Source: an uncultured Rikenellaceae bacterium (lineage in GTDB: Bacteria; Bacteroidota; Bacteroidia; Bacteroidales; Rikenellaceae). Taken from it: a stretch of DNA of 53,023 nucleotides. Positions 12,443 to 34,195 of this stretch are shown piece by piece (position 1 is the first letter of the stretch; each line of letters opens with the position of its first letter). Location of the stretch: the NCBI GenBank assembly GCA_947054185.1, contig CAMRVW010000001.1, forward strand, positions 1 through 53,023, read 5' to 3'. The notes under the pieces were generated by a model. That model made no database searches and was not told where the DNA came from. It was given only the letters and a program-made list of their open reading frames with translations. The position numbers were made by a program, and so were the translations under genes.

Positions 12443-13132
12443 TTATTTGCGGGTCACGTCTTTTACTTTGACATCGAAGAAGAGTGCCTGGTTGCCGCCG
12501 ATGGGGCCTGAGCCATATTCGCCGTAAGCAAGCTCGGAGGGGATCCACAGTTTGATGTGGCCGCCTTTGCCCACAAGCTGCATGCCCTCTTTCCAGCCTT
12601 CGATCACGCCGTTGAGGGGGAAGGTGGCGGGAACGCCGCGCTCGTATGACGAGTCGAACACCTTGCCGTCAGAGAATTTACCTTCGTAATCGACGGTTAC
12701 GGTGTCGTTGATGGTCGGTTTGAGGTTGACGTCGCCCTCGTCGACAATGACGTAAACTATGCCGGTGGGGGTTACCTTAGCGCCTGACTCTTTTTGTGCC
12801 TCTTCGAGGAATTTTATGCTGTTGTCTCTGTTGCGCTTGGGTATTACGGTCATGACATATTTCTGCATGCTCTCGGTTGCCTCCTGGTTTGAGATGGCTG
12901 TCTTCTGGCCTGAGAATGCCTCTTTGATGCCTCTGTTGAGAGCTGCGGGATTGAGGTCCTCGTCGAGGAAGCCCCACGATTTGAGCTGCGAGCCCATAGA
13001 GACGCCGATGGCGTAAGAGAGCGAGTCTTTAGAGCTCTTTATTGACGCCGTGCCGCCTGTAACGTTGTTTTCGCATGATGCGCCGGCCATTAACGTTACG
13101 ATGGCCGCTGAGAATAATAATAGTTTTTTCAT
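12443..13132 (-). CDS. FKBP-type peptidyl-prolyl cis-trans isomerase lipoprotein (FkpA/FklB-like)
   Basis: 229 aa with a lipobox (AGASC), an N-terminal dimerisation-like region and a C-terminal FKBP domain (VTVDYEGKFSDGKVFDSS...IPSELAYG). Confidence 0.9.
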   Translation of the reverse strand: MKKLLLFSAAIVTLMAGASCENNVTGGTASIKSSKDSLSYAIGVSMGSQLKSWGFLDEDLNPAALNRGIKEAFSGQKTAISNQEATESMQKYVMTVIPKRNRDNSIKFLEEAQKESGAKVTPTGIVYVIVDEGDVNLKPTINDTVTVDYEGKFSDGKVFDSSYERGVPATFPLNGVIEGWKEGMQLVGKGGHIKLWIPSELAYGEYGSGPIGGNQALFFDVKVKDVTRK

Positions 13133-13198
13133 GATTATGGTTGGTTTTTATGACAGACTAATGGTGATAACGTCTTGTGTGTGTTTGTTATTGTGCTG

Positions 13199-13206
13199 CA
13201 AAGTTA
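13199..13206 (-). promoter_or_regulatory. -7 box TAACTTTG for the FKBP gene
   Basis: The reverse complement of caaagtta lies ~67 nt upstream of the ATG at 13132. Confidence 0.45.
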
Positions 13207-13476
13207 TATAAATTATTGTATTTTCAGAGCAAACCTGCCGTATGGAGCCGTTTTTATTTTGTCATGAGGTGTGGATAAGTTGTTGAAAAGGTGTCGGTCG
13301 GCGGTTGATTGCGTGTTAATGTTTTGATATTCATATGTGTTGTTGTTTTGTCGGTTGTTGATGTATCTATGTTCGTGTGTGTTGATATGATGTTTACAAA
13401 GTGTTGATTGGTGTTGAAAATTATAGTGCAACATGGGTATACGCAATTATTATGCCGTGCTTGAGTGCACGAATAA

Positions 13477-13500
13477 GGGCCGGAGTGTTCTCTCCGGCCC
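13477..13500 (-). terminator. Terminator of the PCMD operon
   Basis: gggccggag (13477-13485) pairs with ctccggccc (13492-13500), 22 nt downstream of the stop at 13522. Confidence 0.6.
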
Positions 13501-13521
13501 TATAGTGTTTTATGTGTGTGG

Positions 13522-15078
13522 TTATCTGACAATCGGCGTTGAGTCGTAATCGAACGACAGGTCGTCGAGCCAGAGTTTTGAGCCGACGCCACCGCAATAT
13601 TTTTCGCCGTACACGCTCGAGGTGGCCACCAGCACTATGTGTGTGGGTTGTATGGTGGTGGTCTTGTAATCGAGGGTGATCGAGAACTCCTTGTACTGAT
13701 CGTTAGCCTCGCTCGACTTGAACTCGCCGTATGCCACAACGTCGCGGGCGTCCTCTTTGGGGCGGCTTGTGGCACCACGCCAGTTTTCGAGCGACAGGTA
13801 TATGTGGCATTGGTCGGGTTGGCCTATGTATTGCTTGTCTTCGGGTTTGGTTGCGAAGTCGATGGTTTTGGGTTGGTATGAGTACCAGCCTTTGAGCCCT
13901 GCCGGGCGACCTGTGAACGGGCGTCCGAATTTGGGACTGTCGGCTGCCTCTGCTATGCCGGTGAAGATGAAGTCGCCGGTGAAAAGGTTGCCGGCAGCCA
14001 GTTGTATCATCACCTTTTTGGTCTCCATGCATGCGGCATATTTACCCTGCTTGACCTTATCTTCGACAGGTATCGTGGCGTTGACTTTGCCAAACTGGGC
14101 AGTTGCGTAATTGCCTGTTATCCAGAATGGAGTGCTGCCCTGAGCGTACGGATACCAGCAGATGCCCCCGGGGTCACCCTGGTGCCACTCTTCAAAGTCC
14201 ATGTTGGGTATCTCTTCCACCTTGCCGGTGGTGAAGGTCTGTTCCTGGCCCTTCTCGTCGCCGAGGAAGGGGCGGCACACATACTTGGTGCCGGGTTCGA
14301 GGCCGGTCATGACTGCCGTCATGGTGCCGCCGTCGAGAGAGACGTTCTCTATGTCGGTGCGGTTCCAGGCTTCGTCCACTTCGCGGCGATACTCATAGCC
14401 TATGTCGGTGGCGCCAACGGGTACGCTGGCTGTGGCGGTGGCTGCCTTGGTCCATGCCGTCACCGACTTGCTCTGTATCGAGAATTGGGCGTGGGCCGCC
14501 GATATGCGCCACTCTTCGGTGCGGCCGAACATGCTCACCTTAAACACCTGGCCGTCGCCCCTCAGGTCGAAGGTGCCTTGCAGCGGGTCGGGCGTTATGA
14601 CGGCAGAGGCAGGCCCTATCTGTATCTTGTTGATCTTTATGGCGCCGAGGTGTTGCGTCTTGGCAACGGTGACTATCATCACGCGGCCGACGGTGTCGAC
14701 AGAGGCGTCGCCTATCTGGTCGGCGGCGTTGACGAGGTATTGCACGTCCCATTTGGCGTTGATGCTCCACTGATAGTCTTGCCATGTGCGCAGGGTGCAC
14801 AGGTATGGTTTGGCTAAGTTGAGCCTCTCGGGCATTTCGGGCACCATCTCGGTGGAGTCGCTTATGTCCCAGAAGATTACGCGCACATTGGTGATGTCAT
14901 GGTCGCCGTCGACAGTGAGGTTGACCTTGCGGTTGAGCTGGTCGAACTCAGAGTTGCCTATCTGTCCCTCCACCTCGAAGGCTTTGAAACTCGGCTGGCG
15001 GTTGGGGTATGGTATGTCGTTGGGTATGCACCCTGTGACAAGCAGCAGGGTCATTATTATGATGTTAACGCGTCTCAT
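13522..15078 (-). CDS. PCMD-domain surface lipoprotein (Ig-like/FN3/PCMD), operon gene 5
   Basis: Lipobox LLVTGC. An FN3-like segment (MTGLEPGTKYVCRPF) precedes a C-terminal PCMD-type block (AAGNLFTGDF...FGRPFTGRPAGLKGWYSY...CHIYLSLENW...VVAYGEFKS...THIVLVATSSVYG...LWLDDLSFDY). The ATG overlaps the upstream stop (ATGA at 15075-15078). Confidence 0.75.
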   Translation of the reverse strand: MRRVNIIIMTLLLVTGCIPNDIPYPNRQPSFKAFEVEGQIGNSEFDQLNRKVNLTVDGDHDITNVRVIFWDISDSTEMVPEMPERLNLAKPYLCTLRTWQDYQWSINAKWDVQYLVNAADQIGDASVDTVGRVMIVTVAKTQHLGAIKINKIQIGPASAVITPDPLQGTFDLRGDGQVFKVSMFGRTEEWRISAAHAQFSIQSKSVTAWTKAATATASVPVGATDIGYEYRREVDEAWNRTDIENVSLDGGTMTAVMTGLEPGTKYVCRPFLGDEKGQEQTFTTGKVEEIPNMDFEEWHQGDPGGICWYPYAQGSTPFWITGNYATAQFGKVNATIPVEDKVKQGKYAACMETKKVMIQLAAGNLFTGDFIFTGIAEAADSPKFGRPFTGRPAGLKGWYSYQPKTIDFATKPEDKQYIGQPDQCHIYLSLENWRGATSRPKEDARDVVAYGEFKSSEANDQYKEFSITLDYKTTTIQPTHIVLVATSSVYGEKYCGGVGSKLWLDDLSFDYDSTPIVR

Positions 15079-16166
15079 TGTTCGTAATTTTTGAGATTTG
15101 TCTTTATCGCCTTTTCGAAGTCGTCTTCACTGGCCCTGCGTGCCGACTTGCGGAACTTATAGTTGGCAGGGTTGAGACCGCGCATGGAGTTGAGATAGAA
15201 CGCCATGCCTAAGTTTATCGAGAAGAGGTCTATCTTGAAGTTGGCCGATGTGCGGGCGTGTTTGCCGGTCTCGACCTGGTTGGTGGTCTGTTTGATGGTG
15301 TTGTATTTGAGGCCGAGCACACCCACCGACACCTCGACACCCACGTTGTCGGTGATGAAGGCGACAACGCCGGGGGCCAGACCCAGCTGCAGGCTTCTTA
15401 TCTGCTGATAGGTGCCGATCACATCTTCTTTGCTTGAGTTGACCAGCTTGCCCTGGCCGCCGCCGTATGTAAGGCGTGTCTCGTTGAACAGGCCTATGCG
15501 GCGTTGGGTGCCAAGGTTGATGTAATTGCGGAAGAACAACGATATGTCGTACTGGTGTTGTATATAGTTTATGTCGTTGAGCCCGAAGCTGATGTCGTCG
15601 CTTATCTTGAGGTTGACGCTGCCTATGTCGGCCGAGGTGCGAGAGTAAACCAGGCGCGCGCCTATGGCGGTGTTGTTGCCAACGAAGCCACCGAAGAACG
15701 GGCTTACCTTGAAGATATATGCACCCACGTTTATGTCGTCGACAATCAGGAATTTATAGTTGTCTTCGGTGTAATCTTGAAACGATATGTTGCCGCCAAC
15801 GAGCCATTGGCCTTTGGGCACGAATACTATCTGGTCGATGCCGCGGTCGAAAGGGTGGCTCTTGCCTCGCATCCAGTTGTTGGCGCGGGCGGCCTCGTGT
15901 TTGGCATAACGTTCGGCGCGTCGTTGTTCCTCTTTCTCGGGACGCATCACAACGGCCTCGTGTATGGTGTCGAGGGCGTGTATGCGTTGTTCGATGGTCT
16001 GGAGGCGTTTTTCCATGACGCGCGTGAGGCTGTCTATTGCTGGAGACATTACGGGAACGAATACGGTGTCACGGCGATATGGGTTACGGTCGGAACTGCC
16101 GGCCGAGGCATATCCGTATGTGCTGAAAAGTAATGTTATGGCCATCAGGCCTTTGATTATCTGCAT
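15075..16166 (-). CDS. Putative outer-membrane beta-barrel protein with N-terminal coiled-coil segment, operon gene 4
   Basis: A signal peptide is followed by a charged helical segment (EKRLQTIEQRIHALD...EKEEQRRAERYAKHEAARA). Alternating hydrophobic beta-strand patterns then run to ...INLGMAFYL, and a charged ~35-aa tail follows. Confidence 0.55.
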   Translation of the reverse strand: MQIIKGLMAITLLFSTYGYASAGSSDRNPYRRDTVFVPVMSPAIDSLTRVMEKRLQTIEQRIHALDTIHEAVVMRPEKEEQRRAERYAKHEAARANNWMRGKSHPFDRGIDQIVFVPKGQWLVGGNISFQDYTEDNYKFLIVDDINVGAYIFKVSPFFGGFVGNNTAIGARLVYSRTSADIGSVNLKISDDISFGLNDINYIQHQYDISLFFRNYINLGTQRRIGLFNETRLTYGGGQGKLVNSSKEDVIGTYQQIRSLQLGLAPGVVAFITDNVGVEVSVGVLGLKYNTIKQTTNQVETGKHARTSANFKIDLFSINLGMAFYLNSMRGLNPANYKFRKSARRASEDDFEKAIKTNLKNYEQ

Positions 16167-16231
16167 AAGCTCGATTTCTGAATCGCTTGCGAGAACATTT
16201 TTCGTCTCTGTCCCGATTCGGTATTAGAAAA

Positions 16232-16321
16232 GAATCACCCATACCCCCGCGGGGAGTGCCTTTGGTGGTCGCAACGGGGGTGGCGGGGTTGTCACGACCG
16301 GCAGCGGAGGCAGAGTGATTC
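16232..16321 (-). ncRNA. Candidate C-rich structured RNA, copy 1
   Basis: Same architecture as copy 3. P2 has two G.U pairs and P1 has one. U4 follows. Confidence 0.45.
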
Positions 16322-16368
16322 GTATCGAAAGATCGTCACCGACAGTTTGTCGGTTTATGTCAAAAAAA

Positions 16369-16457
16369 GAATCACCCATACCCCCGCGGGGAGTGCCTTG
16401 ATGGTCGTAACGGGGGTGGCGGGGTTGTCACGACCGGCAGCGGAGGCAGAGTGATTC
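16369..16457 (-). ncRNA. Candidate C-rich structured RNA, copy 2
   Basis: Same architecture as copy 3. P1 and P2 each have one G.U, which would be a C.A mismatch on the + strand. U7 follows. Confidence 0.45.
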
Positions 16458-16502
16458 ATATCGAAAGATCGTCACCGACAGTTCGTCGGGTTATGTCAAA
16501 AA

Positions 16503-16590
16503 GATCACCCTTATCCCCGCGGGGAGTGCCTTTGGTGGTCGCAACGGGGGTGGCGGGGTTGTTGCGACCGGCAGCGGAGGCAGGGTGATC
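16503..16590 (-). ncRNA. Candidate C-rich structured RNA, copy 3 (first transcribed)
   Basis: On the sense strand, P1 is GAUCACCC/GGGUGAUC and P2 is GGUCGCAAC/GUUGCGACC (both perfect). The P2 loop is AACCCCGCCACCCCC, P3 is a CCCCGCGGGG hairpin, and U5 follows. Confidence 0.45.
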
Positions 16591-16594
16591 TGTG

Positions 16595-18706
16595 TTAATA
16601 GAGCATCTCAAATTCGTCTATATATAATGTACTTCCCTCACCGCCGATAAAGTCGGAGCCGTACACGCTTGAGGTGGCCACCATGACTATATGGGTCGGC
16701 TTGATGGTGTTGTCGTTGCCATCTTTGGCGAGGGTGTATTCTATGTCGAAGCCCGCTTCGGTATATTCGTCTTTGTTGTCGGCCGATTTGAATTCGCCGT
16801 AACCCACCACCGTGGGGTTGGACGGACGTTCGGTCAGGTTGGGGTCGCCCCAGTTCTCAAGGCTGATATAGACGTGCATCTGGTCGTCTTCTCCCTGGTG
16901 TGAGCCTCCGCCGCGGTTTATCTTCGTGGAGGTGTACTTATAGTGGAAGCGCAGGCCTGAGGGGCGGCCGGTGAACGGACGTCCGAAGTGCACGCTGGCT
17001 TTCGGGTTGGACATGTTGGTCTTGAAGTAACCGGTGAAGAGGTTACCAGCCGCAAAGGTGTTGGCCGGGAATCCCACCCACATGGAGGTCATCTTGACGC
17101 CACGGCCGCGGTATGCTTCCGACTCGTCGACAGGCACGGTGTTGGAGTTGGTCACTATGGTGACGCCGCTGTTGCCGGTATCCCAGAACTGGCTCACATC
17201 GCCGCCCCACGGGTTCCATGTCTTGCCCGACTGGCTCCACGCATCCATGTTGAGGTTGGGTATATAGTGCTTGCTTTCGGTGGTGAATGTAAGCTCGTTA
17301 CCTTCTATAAGGGCAGAGCGGGCGCGCACCTTGTATCTGGTGTCAGGGTCAAGACCGTGCAGCGTGGTCTTGAAGTCGGTGCCGTTCATTGCTATTTCAT
17401 CATCCGGGCATTGAGTCCATTGGCTGTCGCTCTCTTTGCGGTATTCGATGGTCAGACCCTCGGGTTGCTCCTCAGAGACCCAGGCGGCCTCTATATGGGC
17501 ATATGTTGCGAACGCCTCGACACTTTTGGTTTCGGTGTCGGCCTTTGAAGAGCGCACGTTGAATATGACCTCTTGTTCGACGAATCGTGAGTGGTTGTCG
17601 AGCAACATGAGGGTGATGATATGTTCGCCGGTCTTCATCTTGGAGGTCATGCCCGTGAAGTCGACGAAGCCTGATGTTGTGCCGATGCCTCCCCAGGTTA
17701 TGCCTGCCGCATTGAGGGCGGCAATCTTGTCGTCGTCGGCCGTGGTGAGGTTGGTAAACTCGGCTATGCCTTGCTGCGAGAGCGTCGGGTCGCAGTGGGT
17801 GATGTAAAGCAGGTCTATGCCGGCAGGCGATTCTATGTTTACGCGCACCGGAGTGACGACCTCCGACCATATATCGGTCGGGCTGTCCATGTTTATGTCG
17901 TCAGAGGCGAAGCTTCCCATGGGGGCATCGCAGGGCACAAGCACTATCTCGTGGTCAATGTCGCCGGTTGTGGCGTCGACGTTGACAGAGGTGTGTATGC
18001 CGCCGTCGGTGATTTCCCCTGTGTCTGAGACCTTGAACCTGAAGGTATAATGTTCGCGCGGCTTGACGCCCGTGATGGTCTTGCGTATGCGGTAAGTGGC
18101 GCCCTGTGTGTTGGTAAGGTCGAGCACCCAGCTGAGCGAGCCTGTCGCCTTGAAATAGGCCTGGCGGTTTTCGTCAGTGGTGAACGTGAGGGCGGCGTTG
18201 TCGCTTGCGTTGTTGGTAACGGAGGCTTCTATATGAGAGAAGTTGTCTGCCAGGTTTTCGTCGAAAACGACACTCACCTTTACATTGGCCAAAGAGCAGA
18301 CGGGCGAAACGCTGGTGAGTTCTCCCGTCTTTATCTTGAACTTCCGAGTGCCCACCAGATAGGGCGACTCCCAACCCGACTCCATGTCCTGACCGCTCGT
18401 GGCGGTGAGTGTGTATGTGCCGTAATCGAGCTCGACGGCCTCGGGCATGTCGTTGCTGTCGTCGAACGACATTACATCGACGCCCTTGGAGTCAGTAATC
18501 GTAACCCGATAACTGTCGGCGGCATCGGCATAAGTGGTGCGCTCTATTACCGAAACATCCTTGCGGATGCTCTCTATGAGCAATACTCCCTTGTCCTTGT
18601 CGAGTGCGGCTGTCGGATGCTGGGTGCATGACGGCGTCACGCACACCGACGATGCGGCGGCAAGAAGCATGGATATATGGCTTTTTATGTCGGTAAATAA
18701 CCTCAT
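16595..18706 (-). CDS. DUF4493-like/FN3/PCMD surface lipoprotein, operon gene 3
   Basis: The likely start is MRLFTDIKSHISMLLAAASSVCVTPSC (ATG at 18706); the open frame extends to 18898 but that part is not signal-peptide-like. A DUF4493-like block (WESPYLVGTRKFKIKTGELTSV...ANVKVSVVF) is followed by FN3-like LHGLDPDTRYKVRARS and a PCMD C-terminus (AAGNLFTGYF...FGRPFTGRPSGLRFHYKY...MHVYISLENW...THIVMVATSSVYG). Confidence 0.75.
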   Translation of the reverse strand: MRLFTDIKSHISMLLAAASSVCVTPSCTQHPTAALDKDKGVLLIESIRKDVSVIERTTYADAADSYRVTITDSKGVDVMSFDDSNDMPEAVELDYGTYTLTATSGQDMESGWESPYLVGTRKFKIKTGELTSVSPVCSLANVKVSVVFDENLADNFSHIEASVTNNASDNAALTFTTDENRQAYFKATGSLSWVLDLTNTQGATYRIRKTITGVKPREHYTFRFKVSDTGEITDGGIHTSVNVDATTGDIDHEIVLVPCDAPMGSFASDDINMDSPTDIWSEVVTPVRVNIESPAGIDLLYITHCDPTLSQQGIAEFTNLTTADDDKIAALNAAGITWGGIGTTSGFVDFTGMTSKMKTGEHIITLMLLDNHSRFVEQEVIFNVRSSKADTETKSVEAFATYAHIEAAWVSEEQPEGLTIEYRKESDSQWTQCPDDEIAMNGTDFKTTLHGLDPDTRYKVRARSALIEGNELTFTTESKHYIPNLNMDAWSQSGKTWNPWGGDVSQFWDTGNSGVTIVTNSNTVPVDESEAYRGRGVKMTSMWVGFPANTFAAGNLFTGYFKTNMSNPKASVHFGRPFTGRPSGLRFHYKYTSTKINRGGGSHQGEDDQMHVYISLENWGDPNLTERPSNPTVVGYGEFKSADNKDEYTEAGFDIEYTLAKDGNDNTIKPTHIVMVATSSVYGSDFIGGEGSTLYIDEFEMLY

Positions 18707-18867
18707 GTTGTTGTTTCTTTTAATTGCGACTCTTGCCATGGGGCCTTGCCGCTCTTTCATGAGAGCCTTTGGGGTGTCGTTTTGGCGTAAGTCGGTGCAT
18801 TTGCCAAGACATTGAAACTTGTGTGGCGGTGTCGCACCTTGGTTTTCGCAATATGCTTGTCTGTCCA

Positions 18868-18895
18868 TTGCCTGTGAGCGTACGGGCACAGGCAA
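18868..18895 (-). other. Intercistronic 9-bp stem-loop between operon genes 2 and 3
   Basis: ttgcctgtg (18868-18876) pairs with cacaggcaa (18887-18895), 12 nt after the stop at 18907. No U-run follows. Confidence 0.4.
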
Positions 18896-18906
18896 CACAG
18901 ACGATA

Positions 18907-20196
18907 TCAGTTGACCCTGTTTATTGTGAGGGTGGCTTTCACCTCTGCCTCCTTGTTGTCGACAAGGGTCATGTGGAACTTGTGTGTGTTGACATCGAGC
19001 AGAGACATGAAGGCGCCCACAGAGAACGAGGTGCTTTGTGCTCCGGCAATGGGTTTGCTGTCGATGAGACCGAGGTTGGTGAAAGCCCCCTTAAGCTCGT
19101 CAGACAGATTGGCGATGTCAAATTTGACGGGTATGTTGAGACCGCCCAATAGTTCTTCTGTGAGCAACGGCGAGTCTATCTCCACGAAAAGATGTGCGAT
19201 GCCTTCGGGGGCGTTGAAGTTGACGATCACTTCGGCCCCTGCCGCCTCCGCTTCGGTGAAGGTGAGGGGATTGGCTATGTTGAAGCCCTTGCCTTTGATG
19301 GTGGGGGCGCCGCCTTGCGGGGTGTCGTTGTCGTCCCATGGGTTGTCGGTGTCGCCGAAGTCGCTGCCGTCACCATCGTCGCCGCCCTCTTCGGGGATGA
19401 CCACGTCATACTCTTTGTCGGTGATCTCACCATCGAATATTATGCCCATATCGGCCTGCCCCGTGCCTATGGCGCTGATGCGGAAGCGGTGCAGTTCATT
19501 GGCCTTGATGTCGTCTATCATGACGGTCTTGGTGAGCACCGTGCCGCTCTTCTTGCTGGTACCTTTGGCAGTGACCCTCAGGCCGCCGGTGCCGACAGAG
19601 AAGAATCCGTATCTGTTTTTACCGTCAGGGGTGAAGACGAGCTCGCTGTTTTTGTTGCCGGCGTCAGTTTTGGCTATGGTGATGGTGCCGCCGTCGAGCT
19701 GTTCGGCGAAACTGGGGTCGAACTCGACGTATGTGGCTGCGCTTTGGAGCCTGCACGAGAGGTTGATCTCGGTGAGCTTGCCGGGCATTATGCCGATGCG
19801 GTCTTCGCCTCTGAAGTGTGGCGTGTCGAAACTTGCGATCTTTACATCGCGGCTTTCGGCTATAAGTGTGTAACTGCCCTTCTCTATCTCGGCAATGGGA
19901 GGCACGTCAGAGAGTCGGTCCCACTGGTGGGTGACGGCTTCGGTCTCGTTGTCGACAAGGGTTATCTTGAAGTCATCGACAACGGCCATTGCGGCTATGG
20001 CGTCACGATGCTCGTTTACAGAGACATTGTCGCTTATAGTGCCGTGGTCTGAGACCGACAGACTCTGCATGTCGGGGCGAGACTGGAGCCTGAAGCCCAT
20101 ATCTTTCTCGGTGCGCGAGGTGCTGCTGGCGCATGATGCTGCCATTATGCCGCCTGCCAGCAGGGTCAAGGTGTATAAGAAAGATTTTTTCATCAT
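18907..20196 (-). CDS. DUF4493-like surface lipoprotein with acidic linker, operon gene 2
   Basis: Lipobox MAASC. A DUF4493-like block (FDTPHFRGEDRIGIMPGKLTEINLSCRL...YVEF) is followed by the acidic linker PEEGGDDGDGSDFGDTDNPWDDNDTPQGG and a C-terminal Ig-like region. No PCMD domain is present. Confidence 0.7.
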   Translation of the reverse strand: MMKKSFLYTLTLLAGGIMAASCASSTSRTEKDMGFRLQSRPDMQSLSVSDHGTISDNVSVNEHRDAIAAMAVVDDFKITLVDNETEAVTHQWDRLSDVPPIAEIEKGSYTLIAESRDVKIASFDTPHFRGEDRIGIMPGKLTEINLSCRLQSAATYVEFDPSFAEQLDGGTITIAKTDAGNKNSELVFTPDGKNRYGFFSVGTGGLRVTAKGTSKKSGTVLTKTVMIDDIKANELHRFRISAIGTGQADMGIIFDGEITDKEYDVVIPEEGGDDGDGSDFGDTDNPWDDNDTPQGGAPTIKGKGFNIANPLTFTEAEAAGAEVIVNFNAPEGIAHLFVEIDSPLLTEELLGGLNIPVKFDIANLSDELKGAFTNLGLIDSKPIAGAQSTSFSVGAFMSLLDVNTHKFHMTLVDNKEAEVKATLTINRVN

Positions 20197-20259
20197 AATC
20201 TTTATTTTGTTCCGTAAGCAGCCTTGTTATTGACGTGCAATTTCAAAAAGGTCGCTTAA

Positions 20260-22407
20260 TTATAGTTTCGTATATATCAGTTCGACATTGTCAACGGTAA
20301 GCACGTTACCGATGTATTTACTGTCGGCGTATGCTTTAAACGCACCCAACGAGCCTTTGACCGGGTTGACTTTGGGAGTGTCGGCCGATGACGATTTGAA
20401 AGCCACGGATATATGGGTCGCTTTGAGGGCGGTGTTCGAGTAAACGAATGCAATGGTCGCTGTCGTGAAGTCGTTCATCGGGGTCTTGGCCGTTTCAGGG
20501 TCGATCTGCGCTCGCGCCAACTCGGTGACGGTGCCGTCTTCGGCGCGGTGCTCGACGATGGCCCACGCATCGAAGGCCTCTTCGCCTATCTGTGCGAACT
20601 TATAGTCGAATCTCACACCCTCTGGGCGGGAGGGGAACGAGCGGCCCATGTTTTCAGTGCGGTTAGAGATATCGTAATCGCCGATGAAAAGCATGCCCGC
20701 GGTGATGTTTTTCTTAATTCCTGCGCCTCCGGGGAAGGTCGAGCCGCTGCCCCAGTTGACGGTACTGATCTCAGCCGCCAACCCGCTAGGACCTTGCGCC
20801 GAACGTGTGCCGGAGTATTGGTTGTAATATGTCGAGGTGCCGTTCTTATCGCTGGTGGTGAGGGCGTTGCGCGTGTCCCAATATTTGGTGGCGGGGGTGT
20901 TGAAATCGTAAGGGAAGACCTCGTAAATCTCTATACCCATGCCCATAAGGAGCTTTTTGTAACACATCTGCTCGCTCCATGTCTCGAAATCGCGGCCGGG
21001 CACCTGCTCGTCTTTTTCGGTGGCAAACTCCGTTTCGGGGCCGAATGTGCTGTTATTGTAACATATCCTTACCTTGTAAGCGGTTTGCGGGTTGAAGCCC
21101 CAGACCTCCATTTGCAAGCTGTCGCCGGTTTCGTTGAGTGTCTTTTCTGCGGGCAGGTCTATCCACCGGCCGTCTGCAAAGCGCTGCAACTTGAATTTTT
21201 CAGGGTTGGCATCGGTGATGGTTATGCCAGTCTCTATGTGACGGGCCCATGCCATGCCCTCCGAGCTCATGTAATCGAAGCGTGCGGGGTCGACGTGGGC
21301 GGTGTATGTCGGGCTTGTGACGGTCTGGCCCATGCCGTCGGTGACTTTCAGGGTGAAAGTGTGGTCGCCGGGGGAGAGCATGCCCAATGTGGAGCTGAAA
21401 TCTATGTTGCCGGATGTGTTGTCGGCCATCTCGTCCCATTTGAGCGAGTCGCGTTCGAGCACCTTTTTGGTGTCGGCGTCGAGGGTGAGCAGGTCAAACT
21501 CTTCAGGCCATCCGTTAGCTCTCAGGAATGGTGATTCGACTTTAAGTATGCACTCCCTTATCTGTCCCGGGGCATATATGCCTATGCGGGCATTTTCGGT
21601 GAAGCCCTCGGTATATGTGGCGCGGTTGTCGGTAAAGCCTGTGACTGCAAATTCGGGCGCCGGTTTGGGCAACATGAATTTGGGTATCTCGAAGACAAGC
21701 TCCTTGTCGTCTGTGGTCAGATCTTTCTCTATGTTGAGAGAGAAAGTGCCGCCGCCGTTCTTAAGGTTGAGCTTTATGTGCTCGCCCGGTTTGACATCTT
21801 TTACGGTGGGGGGGATGTATATCTTCTGCTCTCCGTCAGTGTTTGTGAATGACACTCTGAAACGTATGTCGGCAGGGGGGGCGAAAGCTGAACGTGTCTC
21901 TTCCGGAGTGAACGTAAGACGTGTGCCCGAGGTGTAAAGAAGCACCGACAGGTCGCTGTGGGTCTCAAGGAAATCGTCGTCGGGGCATACGCTTATGCGT
22001 ACGTTGCGCAATCCAGCTGTCACCGACACGGGGGTCACCTTGCCGGGCAGTATGGTGACGGGGCTTTCGCCGTAATAATAGGGCTTGGAGAAACCGACCT
22101 TGGTGGAGTCGCCATAGAATGCGACCACCTTGTGTGTGCCCTGACGCACGTTGCCATAGCCTGTAAGGTCGGAATAACGGTTCCACTTCTTGAGAAGCGT
22201 CTGACCCGAATATATGAGAAGACGGAAATTGCCGAGGGTGGTGCCGCAGTCGTCGATAGGCTCGTCAAGGCTCTCCATAGCTTGAGAGCAGGCCAGCGAC
22301 ATGCTTATGGTGCCTTCGCCTTGCCCGGGGGCCTCGTCTGACCGTTTGCATCCCGACGCAAGAAGCGTAAAGATAAATATGAAGGTAAATATTTTAGCCA
22401 TATCCAA
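20260..22407 (-). CDS. DUF4493-like/FN3/PCMD surface lipoprotein, operon gene 1
   Basis: Lipobox LLASGC. A DUF4493-like block (FSKPYYYGESPVTILPGKVTPVSV...RNVRISV) is followed by FN3-like VWGFNPQTAYKVRICY and a divergent PCMD-like C-terminus (ITAGMLFIGDY...MGRSFPSRPEGVRFDYKF...THISVAFKSS...VDNVELIY). Confidence 0.72.
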   Translation of the reverse strand: MDMAKIFTFIFIFTLLASGCKRSDEAPGQGEGTISMSLACSQAMESLDEPIDDCGTTLGNFRLLIYSGQTLLKKWNRYSDLTGYGNVRQGTHKVVAFYGDSTKVGFSKPYYYGESPVTILPGKVTPVSVTAGLRNVRISVCPDDDFLETHSDLSVLLYTSGTRLTFTPEETRSAFAPPADIRFRVSFTNTDGEQKIYIPPTVKDVKPGEHIKLNLKNGGGTFSLNIEKDLTTDDKELVFEIPKFMLPKPAPEFAVTGFTDNRATYTEGFTENARIGIYAPGQIRECILKVESPFLRANGWPEEFDLLTLDADTKKVLERDSLKWDEMADNTSGNIDFSSTLGMLSPGDHTFTLKVTDGMGQTVTSPTYTAHVDPARFDYMSSEGMAWARHIETGITITDANPEKFKLQRFADGRWIDLPAEKTLNETGDSLQMEVWGFNPQTAYKVRICYNNSTFGPETEFATEKDEQVPGRDFETWSEQMCYKKLLMGMGIEIYEVFPYDFNTPATKYWDTRNALTTSDKNGTSTYYNQYSGTRSAQGPSGLAAEISTVNWGSGSTFPGGAGIKKNITAGMLFIGDYDISNRTENMGRSFPSRPEGVRFDYKFAQIGEEAFDAWAIVEHRAEDGTVTELARAQIDPETAKTPMNDFTTATIAFVYSNTALKATHISVAFKSSSADTPKVNPVKGSLGAFKAYADSKYIGNVLTVDNVELIYTKL

Positions 22408-22587
22408 ACCCTTTCCGCACCTTATAATTTAAGAAAGTTCCCTTTTATTGGGGGTGGGTCTTTTTAAGGTGCTTGCGGTTGTTTTTCCGGCGGCGATATC
22501 TTGCCGTCTGTCCGTTTTGCGGAGTGTGCGTTCGCTGAACGTGACATGCCGACAAACGGGGTCTTGGTATTTGTAACCTGACCGGGA

Positions 22588-22595
22588 CAAAGATA
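22588..22595 (-). promoter_or_regulatory. -7 box TATCTTTG for the PCMD/DUF4493 operon
   Basis: The reverse complement of caaagata lies ~180 nt upstream of the ATG at 22407, implying a long leader. Confidence 0.45.
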
Positions 22596-22877
22596 TGGCA
22601 TTTTTGATGGAGGTCCAAATTTTTTCGTCTGTTTTTTTGCTTAAAACGGCCTGTGGGGTGTTGTGGGGCCGATTGTCGGGTGGTAAATGAGAGGTTGCCG
22701 TGTGTGGTGTGCGGCGGGTTAGTGTTTTTTTTATTTTCTTTATTTTAAGATAACGATTATGTTGTTTTTGCGGTTATGACTCTTACATTTTAAGCGATAT
22801 CAGGCCTGTTGTAATGCGTTTTGTTGTGGCGTGACGGTAAAAATGTGGCAAATGTGATGCAACTCGGAAAATATTAT

Positions 22878-22885
22878 TATCTTTG
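22878..22885 (+). promoter_or_regulatory. -7 box TATCTTTG for aspA
   Basis: Exact match 83 nt upstream of the ATG at 22968. Confidence 0.5.
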
Positions 22886-22967
22886 TGGTGCCCTGTGGCG
22901 CGATGCGTCAGGCGGGTAAATGTGCTTTAATCATCAGCTCTGAAAGAAGACTTAAATTTTAACCGTT

Positions 22968-24404
22968 ATGAAGATAACAGAACAGCAATTATCCGGCCAG
23001 GTGAGGGTGGAGCACGACCTTCTCGGCGACAAAAGCATTCCTGTCGAATATTATTTCGGCGTACAAACCATGCGTGCGGTGGAGAATTTCCACATCAGCC
23101 GTGTGAGTCTTGGCATGTATCCAGTGTTCGTCAAGGCTTTGGCCATTGTAAAACAGGCTGCTGCCGAAGCCAACTGCGAGTTGGGCATTCTTCCCGTCGA
23201 GATACGCGATGCCATTGTGGCGGCATGTAAAGAGGTGCGTGAGGGCAAGTTCGACGAACATTTCGTTGTCGACATGATTCAGGGCGGTGCCGGTACTTCA
23301 ACCAACATGAACGCCAACGAGGTGATTGCCAACCGTGCCCTGGAGATAATGGGGCACAAGAAGGGCGAGTATAAATACTGCCACCCCAACAACCACGTAA
23401 ACCTCTCGCAGTCAACTAACGACGCCTATCCCACATCGGTGCGCGTGGCATTGCTTTACCGTACCCGCGACCTTGTGGAGACTCTCAGGCAGCTCGTCGA
23501 GGCGTTCCGTGCCAAGGGAGAAGAGTTTGCCGACGTGATAAAAATGGGGCGCACCCAGATGCAGGATGCCGTGCCCATGACCCTCGGGCAGGAGTTCGGC
23601 GCCTATGCTGCCACTCTGGCAGAGGAGATAGAGCGTCTGGAGCATAACGTGCGTCTGTTCCTTGAGGTCAACATGGGTGCCACGGCCATAGGTACGGGCA
23701 TCAACTCAGACCCCGATTACACTCCCACCTGCATCAGGCACTTGGCGCAGATTTCGGGCATGCCCGTGGTGGCGGCAGGCAACATGATAGAGGCAACCAA
23801 CGACACCGGCGCGTTCATCATGTATTCGTCGGCAGTCAAACGACTGGCTGTCAAACTGTCTAAGATAAGCAACGACCTCCGTCTGTTGTCATCGGGTCCG
23901 CGCACCGGCTTTAACGAGATAAATCTGCCCCCCATGCAGCCCGGCTCGACCATCATGCCCGGCAAGGTCAACCCAGTAATTCCCGAGGTGGTCAGCCAGA
24001 TAGCCTTCAAGGTGATAGGCAACGACCTTACCGTCACCATGGCCGTGGAGGCGGCTCAGCTTGAGCTTAACGCCATGGAGCCTATAATAGTGCAGGCGCT
24101 CTTTGAGAACATAGAGATGCTTATAAACGGCATGAACACCCTGCGCGAAAGGTGCATCGTGGGCATCACCGCCAACAAAGAGCGTTGCCGCGACATGGTG
24201 TACCACAGCATTGGTCTTGTGACCGCTCTCAACCCCTATTTGGGTTATGAGGTATCGACCGAGCTGGCCAAAGAGGCGCTGGAAAACAACAAGGGCGTAT
24301 ATGACCTTGTGCTCGAGAAGGGGCTGATGTCTAAAGAGGAGCTCGACAATGTGTTGCGCCCCGAAAACATGGTCAAGCCGCGTAAGTTCGTGACCAAAAA
24401 ATAG
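22968..24404 (+). CDS. aspA: Aspartate ammonia-lyase
   Basis: 478 aa. The fumarate-lyase superfamily signature GSTIMPGKVNP and the N-terminal VEHDLLGDKSIPVEYYFGVQTMRA are typical of aspartase. Confidence 0.92.
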   Translation: MKITEQQLSGQVRVEHDLLGDKSIPVEYYFGVQTMRAVENFHISRVSLGMYPVFVKALAIVKQAAAEANCELGILPVEIRDAIVAACKEVREGKFDEHFVVDMIQGGAGTSTNMNANEVIANRALEIMGHKKGEYKYCHPNNHVNLSQSTNDAYPTSVRVALLYRTRDLVETLRQLVEAFRAKGEEFADVIKMGRTQMQDAVPMTLGQEFGAYAATLAEEIERLEHNVRLFLEVNMGATAIGTGINSDPDYTPTCIRHLAQISGMPVVAAGNMIEATNDTGAFIMYSSAVKRLAVKLSKISNDLRLLSSGPRTGFNEINLPPMQPGSTIMPGKVNPVIPEVVSQIAFKVIGNDLTVTMAVEAAQLELNAMEPIIVQALFENIEMLINGMNTLRERCIVGITANKERCRDMVYHSIGLVTALNPYLGYEVSTELAKEALENNKGVYDLVLEKGLMSKEELDNVLRPENMVKPRKFVTKK

Positions 24405-24668: not shown

Positions 24669-25072
24669 TTGCAAAACAAAACGGCTATCTTTGACCTGAT
24701 GGTTTAAGGTACTCGTGCTCGGCAAAAGCAGACAAAGTTGCTTGTCTCTCGGCTTAACCGTATCGTTGACCTGACGGTCTAAGATACTCCGCCTCGGACA
24801 ACCAAATAAAATTTGCTTGTCTCTCGGCTTAACCGTATCGTTGACCTGACGGTTTTAAGATACTCTCGCTCGGCAAAAAAACAAACAAGTTTGCTTTTGC
24901 GCTCGCTTATCCGTATCGTTGGCTGACGCCTTAGATACTTCGCCTCGGACAACCAAATAAAATTTGCTTGTCTCTCGGCTTCATCGTATCTTTAACCTGC
25001 TGGTTTAAGGTACTCGTGCTCGGCAAAACACAAACAAGTTTGCTTTTGCGCTCGCTTAATCGTATCTTTGTG
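24669..25072 (+). repeat. Tandem array of ~5.4 units (73-78 nt) of a promoter-like repeat ending at the start of the metal-efflux operon
   Basis: Units begin at about 24669, 24738, 24813, 24891, 24964 and 25039. Each has TTGCTT..N~20..TATC(G/T)TTG. Exact TATCTTTG boxes lie at 24686-24693 and 25063-25070, the latter 5 nt before the ATG at 25076. Confidence 0.9.
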
Positions 25073-33400: not shown

Positions 33401-33964
33401 CTATTTCGCCGTGTTTTTACGGTGTCTTTCCGGGTCGAAAAATTTGTATCCTATGTTTACGCCTATCTTGTAAGGCATCCATTCGGCCGACATGTTGTAA
33501 AAGATATCTTCGCCAGTTACCTTGTTCAGCCCTGTGTACCAGCTGTGTTGCCAGCCATATCCCACGAACGCCTCTATGAGCATGCGTTTGCCAACCCTCC
33601 ATTGGTAACCGGTGGTGGCGCCTATGATAATGCCCCAGCCTTTGCAGTTTTTCATGTCGTCTTTGGCCATGTTAAAGCCCAGCATGCCGGCAGAGGCCCC
33701 TATATACCAGCCGTTGAAGTTTTCTTTGGTGTGAAACCTTACCTCGTTGAGGAATAAGCCGAATTGCATGGGACGTCCGCCCACAGAGTTCCACGGAGAG
33801 TACACACCCTCCATGTTGAAGGTGGTCTTTTTAGACAGAGGCATCTCCAATGACGGATTTATGACCCCCACGAGCGCATATACGCCGTTGAGTTTGACGT
33901 AAGATTGCGCCATAAGACTTGTGGATGACAATATCGCCAATGTGAGGAGGATGAACTTTTTCAT
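33401..33964 (-). CDS. DUF3575-like small outer-membrane beta-barrel protein
   Basis: 187 aa with a signal peptide ending MAQS. The alternating aromatic/glycine beta-strand pattern (GWYIGASAGM, GIIIGATTGYQW, EAFVGYGWQ) fits the family. Confidence 0.65.
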   Translation of the reverse strand: MKKFILLTLAILSSTSLMAQSYVKLNGVYALVGVINPSLEMPLSKKTTFNMEGVYSPWNSVGGRPMQFGLFLNEVRFHTKENFNGWYIGASAGMLGFNMAKDDMKNCKGWGIIIGATTGYQWRVGKRMLIEAFVGYGWQHSWYTGLNKVTGEDIFYNMSAEWMPYKIGVNIGYKFFDPERHRKNTAK

Positions 33965-33974
33965 GATAGAATAT

Positions 33975-34195
33975 TTGTTGCAAAGATACGATTAAGCCGA
34001 GAGGCAAGCAAATTTTATTTGTTTGCCCGAGGCGAGAGTATCTTAAAACCGACAGGTTAACGATACGATTAAGCCGAGAGGCAAGCAAATTTTATTTGTT
34101 TGTCCGAGGCGAGAGTATCTAAGACCGTCAACTCAAAGATGGCAAAAACTTGTTTGTTTTTGCCCCGGCGAAGTATTTAAGGCGAAGCTGAAAAC
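33975..34195 (-). repeat. Second array (~3 units) of the same ~75-nt promoter-like repeat, oriented toward the DUF3575-like gene
   Basis: On the minus strand the sequence reads ...ttgcttgcctctcggcttaatcgtatcgttaacc... and ends ...cttaatcgTATCTTTGcaacaaatattctatcATG. The TATCTTTG box lies at 33981-33988 and the ATG at 33964. Confidence 0.85.

Follow-up and report, generated by a model that had tools for sequence, protein, structure and literature searches.

A tandem hairpin array at one junction of a surface-protein operon in an uncultured Rikenellaceae bacterium

Why should a single junction of a five-gene operon for surface proteins be occupied by some 420 nt of repeated, hairpin-forming sequence when close relatives join the same two genes with 14 nt? 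The question is raised by a stretch of 53,023 nt (contig CAMRVW010000001.1 of assembly GCA_947054185.1, positions 1 to 53,023 of the forward strand; the whole of it is referred to here as the window) from an uncultured Rikenellaceae bacterium, in which three near-identical units lie between the third and fourth genes of a minus-strand operon that encodes proteins with DUF4493 and PCMD domains. Rikenellaceae are common gut residents of which few strains have been cultured or studied, and to our knowledge RNA-level control in Bacteroidales outside Bacteroides is almost uncharted. The same operon with and without a 420-nt hairpin array at one junction amounts to a natural experiment, in which the array appears to have been held under selection while the surrounding sequence drifted. 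Judged from sequence comparison, the hairpins are a real, selected and strand-specific RNA structure, known in kind and new as a sequence family; their narrow known distribution, in two close lineages, makes them a good candidate rather than a discovery.

Layout and predicted fold of the array

Gene 3, with its stop codon at 16595-16597, and gene 4, with its ATG at 16166, stand 428 nt apart, and the array takes up this gap. Tandem Repeats Finder reported one array at 16228-16589 (period 136, 2.7 copies, 92% matches, score 622), a separate repeat search returned three copies spaced 133-137 nt apart, and two core motifs of 19-20 nt turned up exactly three times apiece in the 53-kb window, where chance would give 0.02, all in agreement with the original prediction, made from the letters of the DNA, of three near-identical units between the two genes. 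The repeat unit had been put at ~90 nt; the unit that is actually repeated measures ~136 nt and consists, on the sense (minus) strand, of a palindromic body of ~90 nt, a tract of U4-U7 and a spacer of ~45 nt with a small CCGAC...GUCGG hairpin. Unit A starts 3 nt past the stop codon of gene 3, and the spacers between units are 40-47 nt long and contain no open reading frames (ORFs). The parts are given below in transcript order, with folding energies, their z-scores and the scores of a covariance model built from the copies; the sister lineage is the second, closely related lineage that carries the array.

16502-16591, minus strand: hairpin unit A, first in the transcript (loop 16546-16560; -44.6 kcal/mol, z -6.1; 109.7 bits)
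16497-16501, minus strand: U5 tract directly 3' of hairpin A
16458-16496, minus strand: spacer 1, with the small hairpin CCGAC-GAACU-GUCGG (~16475-16489); 63-65% identity to the sister-lineage spacer
16369-16457, minus strand: hairpin unit B (loop 16412-16426; -45.2 kcal/mol, z -5.8; 117.6 bits)
16362-16368, minus strand: U7 tract directly 3' of hairpin B
16322-16361, minus strand: spacer 2, with the small hairpin CCGACA-AAC-UGUCGG (~16339-16353)
16232-16321, minus strand: hairpin unit C, last in the transcript (loop 16276-16290; -44.0 kcal/mol, z -4.9; 117.4 bits)
16228-16231, minus strand: U4 tract 3' of hairpin C (UUUUCU), an identical tail standing behind the last unit of the sister lineage
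16167-16227, minus strand: non-repeat 3' flank of the insertion, reaching the gene 4 ATG; 75% identity between lineages, absent in array-less relatives

The region is taken as non-coding because the other copies lack the ATG of copy B and a 1-nt indel shifts the frame; it is most improbable that the 35-codon ORF of copy B (16353-16457), which runs from an ATG at 16457 to a stop in the spacer, is a gene.

On the sense strand, the minimum-energy fold of every copy is a single rod of 31 pairs capped by the 15-nt loop AACCCCGCCACCCCC. Along the rod, helix P1 (GAAUCACUC/GGGUGAUUC) is followed by UGCCUCCGC paired with GCGGGGGUA, by UGCC paired with GGCA and lastly by helix P2 (GGUCGUGAC/GUUGCGACC), with two bulges, ACCAAA and CUCCCC, on the 3' side. 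Unit C has exactly these P1 and P2 sequences, unit B has the same P1 with P2 as GGUCGUGAC/GUUACGACC, and unit A has P1 as AGAUCACCC/GGGUGAUCU and P2 as GGUCGCAAC/GUUGCGACC. The rod is the minimum-energy fold in all six distinct copies from the two lineages, at -44 to -49 kcal/mol, and the three window copies (z -4.9 to -6.1) were matched in stability by none of 200 shuffles. P1, P2, the loop and the U4-U7 tracts are as originally described, and the copy differences listed at P2 position 6 (U.G, U-A and C-G), P2 position 7 (G.U, G.U and A-U) and P1 position 8 (U.G, U.G and C-G) proved correct. The multi-helix, three-way layout is not supported: scored as P1, P2, the CCCCGCGGGG hairpin and a free CUGCCUCCG segment, it reaches -28 to -31 kcal/mol against -43 to -49 kcal/mol for the rod (12-18 kcal/mol worse), and CUGCCUCCGC, taken to be single-stranded, pairs in the rod with GCGGGGGUA, the segment that had been proposed as the 3' half of the CCCCGCGGGG hairpin. 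Each hairpin leaves 28 bases unpaired, comprising 18 C, 7 A, 2 U and 1 G.

The antisense strand of the copies folds inconsistently (z -0.8 to -4.0), and the rod mirrored onto it loses 2-5 pairs and 5-17 kcal/mol because the G.U pairs, which number 3-5 of the 31 in B, C and the sister-lineage copies and 2 in copy A, turn there into A.C mismatches. Folding of both strands therefore upholds the claim that pairing is preserved on the minus strand only. The U4-U7 tract stands directly behind the hairpin in six of six distinct copies from both lineages, despite divergence of the adjoining spacer. As modelled, the structure and the U-tract together fit the sense strand of the operon only. No canonical G-quadruplex motif is present on the template strand of the array. 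The window sequence would also allow an antiterminator pairing of the spacer GGUGA with the next P1, but the sister lineage does not conserve it, and the idea was set aside.

Conservation, insertion and distribution

Divergence was gauged by comparing the window with the sister-lineage locus L003, a comparison that involves only six distinct unit sequences from two lineages. Fourfold-degenerate sites differ by 29% (921 sites in five genes), and non-coding identity amounts to 63-65% in the spacers, 75% in the 3' flank of the array and 82% between gene 5 and the next gene, fkbp; the hairpin bodies carry 4/90, 5/89 and 12/90 differences (4-13%; 87-96% identical), copy A being the most diverged, with binomial P values of 3e-9 to 4e-4 against the fourfold-site rate. 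Since the bodies differ by 4-13%, against 29% at fourfold sites and ~35% in the spacers, the comparison indicates purifying selection on the hairpins and speaks for the earlier proposal of selection at the RNA level in the direction of the operon. A sliding identity profile gives 90-100% in hairpins B and C versus 37-63% in spacer windows, and because identity alternates in this manner between hairpin and spacer, no single recombination tract explains it. Neither the 15-nt loop nor the CUCCCC bulge varies among the six distinct copies; the other bulge and one single-base bulge do. Pairing is retained in 99.5% of 186 pair cells, all stem substitutions but one cell keeping it, and the changes include two double compensatory ones (at the base of P1, where copy A has A-U/G-C in place of G-C/A-U) and four exchanges between G.U and Watson-Crick pairs (G.U with G-C or A-U) among the copies. 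The expectation that homologous copies maintain P1 and P2 is hence borne out in the second lineage.

A further conserved stretch lies in the 3' part of gene 3, where ~200 nt (16800-16994) are 97-100% identical between the lineages, synonymous sites included, against 81% for gene 3 overall; it might be explained by a recent recombination tract or by a constrained element embedded there.

In the sister lineage (L003, and L024/L057 from a metagenome-assembled genome, MAG, in GTDB) the array likewise has three units, with a period of 140, and the gene 4 protein is 95% identical. Six further lineages, whose gene 4 proteins are 71-80% identical to that of the window, join the two genes by TAA-cgaaaatgtNNNNt-ATG, with only 14 nt between genes 3 and 4 and no trace of the array. 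Because these six relatives keep the bare junction, the ~420-nt block is best read as an insertion in the common ancestor of the two close lineages rather than as an ancestral component of the operon; the element is a recent arrival there, not an old part. The spacers of the two array-bearing lineages are homologous, so that their common ancestor would already have had at least two units.

A distant Alistipes sp. operon (L095, 2883-3000) has an unrelated gap of 118 nt between its genes 3 and 4, with an 8-bp hairpin CUAUGGUU/AACCAUAG. Because this gap is unrelated and yet holds a hairpin, structured gaps may have evolved at this junction on more than one occasion.

The number of units differs between assemblies. 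SPAdes-type contigs hold three units (the window, L003) or two (L001, 5709-5943); two Logan contigs from different runs each hold one chimeric unit, to which A contributes the 5' half and C the 3' half; and over 20 other contigs end abruptly within the last unit. The reduced or broken forms include L097 and L098 (1343-1443) and L099 (1-60). Contigs with the window's own gene 4 protein carry the same array, either collapsed to two units or broken inside a unit, and as a source of variation the further cluster members yielded only such collapsed or broken contigs and no new variants. The one-, two- and three-unit forms may reflect recombinational polymorphism or short-read collapse. At the end of JAIECQ010000037.1 (L057, 2340-2399), unit 1 and a variant of the spacer are followed by a different sequence, cacgaaAGACAGCGCCGACGCGGCGCGTGG, in place of a second unit; the segment contains a GCGCCG/CGGCGC hairpin, and 2376-2399 could not be traced in any data searched. 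This end may represent a variant unit, another locus that shares the repeat or a chimeric contig end.

Other copies were sought at several scales. No Rfam 15 family matched the whole window at gathering thresholds, and at E<=10 nothing relevant was found in 16100-16700, the best matches being Actino-ugpB (18.2 bits against a threshold of 42.5; E 0.92) and HOTTIP_1 (11.4 bits), both antisense; the all-model scan thus agrees that this is not a known Rfam family. With filters off, the covariance model R1, built from the copies, detected no more than the three units in the window (110-118 bits), the next matches being generic hairpins at ~14 bits, and a motif search allowing 3 mismatches found no copies beyond these three in the 53-kb window. 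In 21 related loci the model found only the same arrays. The large-scale scans were exact-pattern searches of collections in which MAGs tend to lose repeats: an exact 19-mer run over GTDB (one genome per species, 185,579 species) returned 66 loci, 64 of them chance matches in high-G+C genomes and the remaining two both belonging to this gene 3/gene 4 locus, as opposite contig ends, in the MAG Rikenellaceae bacterium SC0386_comb_2; a gapped pattern in JGI metagenomes returned 15 loci, all chance matches; and IMG/VR viral contigs, phage records and plasmid records yielded no copy. The array was accordingly found in only two related Rikenellaceae lineages, with three units in each. The risk that it is a generic mobile palindrome scattered in both orientations did not materialise, as all data searched showed it at one locus and in one orientation.

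Possible roles of the array

The reading that we favour places the array inside an operon mRNA, the components of which are as follows.

22588-22619, minus strand: canonical Bacteroidota promoter (TTTG-N20-TAtcTTTG) before gene 1, the sole one upstream of genes 1-5
20260-22407, minus strand: gene 1, DUF4493 and/or PCMD
18907-20196, minus strand: gene 2, DUF4493 and/or PCMD
16595-18898, minus strand: gene 3, upstream neighbour of the array, DUF4493 and PCMD; start codon uncertain
15075-16166, minus strand: gene 4, downstream neighbour of the array, a protein with a signal peptide and resembling an outer-membrane protein (OMP) beta-barrel, relatives of which give weak OMP beta-barrel Pfam matches
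13522-15078, minus strand: gene 5, DUF4493 and/or PCMD

A sigma-70 promoter scan does not apply to Bacteroidota. The Bacteroidota consensus TTTG-N17-23-TAnnTTTG was sought on the minus strand of 13000-23000, where it occurs only at 22619-22588 (gene 1) and 13233-13199 (fkbp) and neither before any unit nor in or after the array. Genes 1-5 look like one operon because the only canonical promoter before the end of gene 5 lies before gene 1; a short conventional terminator is found 3' of gene 5. The U-tract with its following G was considered as an internal promoter and rejected, being a one-mismatch look-alike of the -7 element without a -33 element. Between the promoter and the start of gene 1 there appears to run a long 5' leader of ~180 nt (22402-22588), whose C-rich stretch CCCACCCCC resembles the hairpin loop and is not complementary to it.

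In the favoured reading, to which we assign a probability of roughly 45%, the array works in cis, as a partial terminator or as a barrier to 3' exonucleases, and uncouples genes 1-3 from genes 4-5. It would be transcribed within the gene 1-gene 5 mRNA, each unit would fold on the sense strand into the 31-pair rod ending in its U-tract, and the hairpins would act in cis through partial Rho-independent termination, through blockage of 3'->5' exonucleases, or both. Transcripts ending at a unit would carry genes 1-3 with a protected 3' end, read-through transcripts alone would carry genes 4-5, and genes 1-3 would be expressed above genes 4-5. The insertion would thus have turned a tight gene 3/gene 4 junction into a point of differential expression, with an effect multiplied by three units in series. 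A ribosome terminating on gene 3 would presumably cover the 5' arm of hairpin A. Termination or stabilisation itself, like the effect on gene dosage, is what we infer from the arrangement; were it true, one structured-RNA insertion could rewire the gene ratio of an operon.

What speaks for this reading is that a stable hairpin followed by a U-tract on the transcribed strand is present in six of six copies, in the sense direction only, and that three units have been kept in both lineages. Protein identity between the lineages is 95% for gene 4 and 85% for gene 5 against 29-31% fourfold-site change, so both genes are under strong purifying selection; for that reason transcription through the array should proceed at a useful rate, and partial rather than complete termination fits, since genes 4-5 must still be expressed. 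There are, moreover, precedents in the protective intercistronic hairpins of malE-malF in E. coli (a repetitive extragenic palindromic, REP, sequence) and of puf in Rhodobacter, and in the consecutive hairpins of menBCE with their graded decay, all of which resemble the array as stable sense-strand hairpins between operon genes, several in series being possible, conserved above the synonymous rate and with the same expected outcome of upstream genes exceeding downstream genes (PMC5927463). The array shares no homology with these, and differs from them in its 90-nt hairpins with an invariant 15-nt C-rich loop and a U-tract behind each, arranged as three tandem 136-nt repeats in a lineage-specific insertion.

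Several observations count against the cis role. Typical intrinsic terminators have a stem of ~5-14 bp, a loop of 3-8 nt and a G+C-rich stem base, and the native terminators in the window have arms of 12-18 nt and loops of 4-6 nt; the array hairpins fall outside such dimensions, with 31 bulged pairs, a 15-nt loop and a stem base of G-C/A-U/A-U/U-A, exceed the native terminators of this genome about threefold in length, and were not flagged by a consensus terminator scan. The 15-nt loop and A/U-rich stem base are atypical of efficient intrinsic terminators. Pure structure does not explain the invariance of the loop and of CUCCCC (0.71^21, ~7e-4 at the fourfold-site rate), and because the loop and one bulge are conserved in sequence, an added or alternative role as a recognition surface is favoured, whether on a released multicopy RNA or as a site for protein binding. 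The neutral benchmark is itself rough, since the locus is mosaic, as the ~200 nt of gene 3 with 97-100% identity show, and a degree of conservation equal to that of the hairpins is reached by 9.5% of its 90-column windows (7.8 kb in all). Lastly, six related lineages manage without the array, and three copies may not be required, given the one- or two-unit assemblies.

The recognition surface leads to the main rival explanation, which we consider doubtful and which can coexist with a cis role: each hairpin with its U-tail would be freed from the operon transcript, through termination or processing, as a stable, multicopy trans-acting RNA of ~90-135 nt, and its C-rich loop AACCCCGCCACCCCC, perhaps together with CUCCCC, would bind G-rich targets or a protein. 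The loop and CUCCCC are unchanged across lineages that differ by 29% at fourfold sites, 25 of the 28 unpaired bases are C or A, and the units are multicopy and tandem with a terminator-like 3' end. LhrC of Listeria is similarly a multicopy set of modular hairpins with a conserved C-rich loop motif, to which the layout is analogous. The analogy extends to cuckoo/CcsR of the Alphaproteobacteria, in which modular hairpins bear a conserved C-rich loop motif and are tandem or clustered in up to 9 copies, CcsR being co-transcribed with its upstream gene (PMC4615179). The array departs from both in having the loop AACCCCGCCACCCCC rather than CCUCCUCCC (the cuckoo/CcsR motif) or UCCC, and from cuckoo/CcsR in forming one long rod per unit instead of 2-4 short adjacent hairpins and in conserving the sequence of its stems too. 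Its host is also a member of the Bacteroidota, most of which lack Shine-Dalgarno sequences, so that anti-Shine-Dalgarno mimicry, the usual target of C-rich loops being missing, would have no obvious object there. Within Bacteroidales, FopS/GibS of Bacteroides offers a comparison as multicopy RNAs linked to outer-membrane or surface protein operons, but the characterised FopS RNAs are dispersed, 65-70 nt long and equipped with their own sigma-ABfr promoters and a single-stranded 5' seed (R1/R1'), a description by which the array units, tandem, of another size and with no TAnnTTTG promoter in or near them, are set apart (PMC11697453).

The absence of a canonical promoter before any unit likewise disfavours a trans-acting RNA, as does the known occurrence of the array in only two close lineages. 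None of the transcript strands in the window contains a site complementary to the C-rich loop, and loop duplexes with the 36 translation-initiation regions and the operon mRNA, the best of which look like G-rich coding sequence, were judged to be chance; neither window nor operon mRNA therefore offers a convincing target. In the most novel form of this explanation, which we consider equally doubtful, the units would be excised from the operon mRNA, or set free by termination, and would build up as a cuckoo/LhrC-like small RNA cluster in Bacteroidota, with the invariant apical loop pairing with G-rich targets or titrating an RNA-binding protein; this would place a C-rich-loop multicopy RNA in a phylum largely without the usual target of such loops. 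It is also a possibility that recombination alters how many units there are (1-3 in assemblies), and that both the dose of this RNA and the expression of genes 4-5 are thereby tuned.

An improbable third explanation is that of a selfish or neutral palindrome, similar to a REP or to a miniature inverted-repeat transposable element (MITE), which landed at the gene 3/gene 4 junction and was amplified by slippage or unequal crossing-over, the hairpin and U-tract being incidental. The insertion is indeed recent and absent in six relatives, the spacers are near-identical within a genome, as fits recent amplification or gene conversion, and the one-, two- and three-unit assemblies suggest an unstable copy number. 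REPs and their composites, bacterial interspersed mosaic elements (BIMEs), are imperfect extragenic palindromes as well, and can be tandem and stabilise upstream mRNA. REPs are, however, 20-40 nt long, number tens to hundreds of dispersed copies in either orientation and are linked to REP-associated tyrosine transposases (RAYTs, IS200/IS605-like Y1 enzymes), whereas the array has a palindromic body of 89-90 nt at a single locus (within the 53-kb window, the 21 related loci and the GTDB representatives searched by exact 19-mer) and in a single orientation, and no transposase, RAYT, integrase or recombinase is encoded among the 36 ORFs of the window. The ends of the array do form an inverted repeat (P1) as in a MITE, but no target-site duplication is visible at its borders (TAA-CAC on one side and CTAATACC on the other), nor did the searches of the window, the related loci and GTDB reveal dispersed copies. 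Hairpins far more conserved than spacers and synonymous sites are, in addition, unlike neutral DNA.

Rho prefers C-rich, unstructured and untranslated RNA, and the unpaired segments, C-rich and G-poor at 18 C to 1 G per unit, might in three serial units within a 428-nt untranslated intra-operon gap form a composite rut-like site that imposes polarity on genes 4-5. This is still less probable than a selfish repeat: only ~28 nt per unit are unpaired, the remainder being a very stable duplex that is poor for Rho loading, and the conserved U-tract points instead to intrinsic termination.

Least probable of all, the 90-bp imperfect palindromes might serve at the DNA level as binding or recombination sites in an operator array or an array of attC type (as in integrons or in clusters of attC sites lacking integrases, CALINs), a notion to which the sequence conservation of both arms and loop and the likeness of bulged, strand-biased imperfect palindromes to attC lend some appeal, but attC ends read R''(RYYYAAC)...R'(GTTRRRY) where the array, judged by inspection against this consensus, has GAATCAC...GTGATTC, attC sites are separated by cassettes, often with IntI nearby, where the array has ORF-less spacers of 40-47 nt and no integrase or recombinase in 53 kb, the G.U pairs, of which one stays unchanged from copy to copy, would in DNA become A.C mismatches, and a one-sided T-tract has no obvious role at that level.

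Type III toxin-antitoxin loci of the ToxI kind consist of tandem repeats of ~34-36 nt followed by an endoribonuclease toxin gene; the array has a period of 136 nt, and the gene downstream encodes the signal-peptide, OMP beta-barrel-like protein. The array therefore lies outside Rfam, REP/BIME, MITE, cuckoo, FopS, attC and ToxI, as it lacks at least one defining feature of each. In its presumed working it comes closest to protective intercistronic hairpins or partial terminators, and in appearance it has some likeness to multicopy small RNAs with C-rich loops.

Other repeats in the window

The gene neighbourhood in the window, with its 36 ORFs, is of a housekeeping kind and includes SecA, FolE, LptF/G, an RND pump, DnaX, ribosomal protein S1, PFOR, CdaA and FolP. 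A second, unrelated repeat family, with units of ~75-77 nt, is found at 24686-25070 and 33985-34127: about five tandem units stand upstream of a 140-aa ORF (ATG 25076, plus strand), and two units in opposite orientation stand upstream of a DUF3575 gene (33401-33964, minus strand). All of these units have a Bacteroidota -7-like motif at their end (TATCGTTG or TATCTTTG), and in both places the gene-proximal unit shows the complete promoter consensus (25039-25070 on the plus strand; 34012-33981 on the minus strand), so that these units look like tandemly repeated promoter modules. A canonical promoter at 410-440 and the GTP cyclohydrolase I gene are closely preceded by another short tandem repeat, at 314-388 (period 21-24, ~2.7 copies, consensus GAGGCAGTTCCCGCAAAACAAAA).

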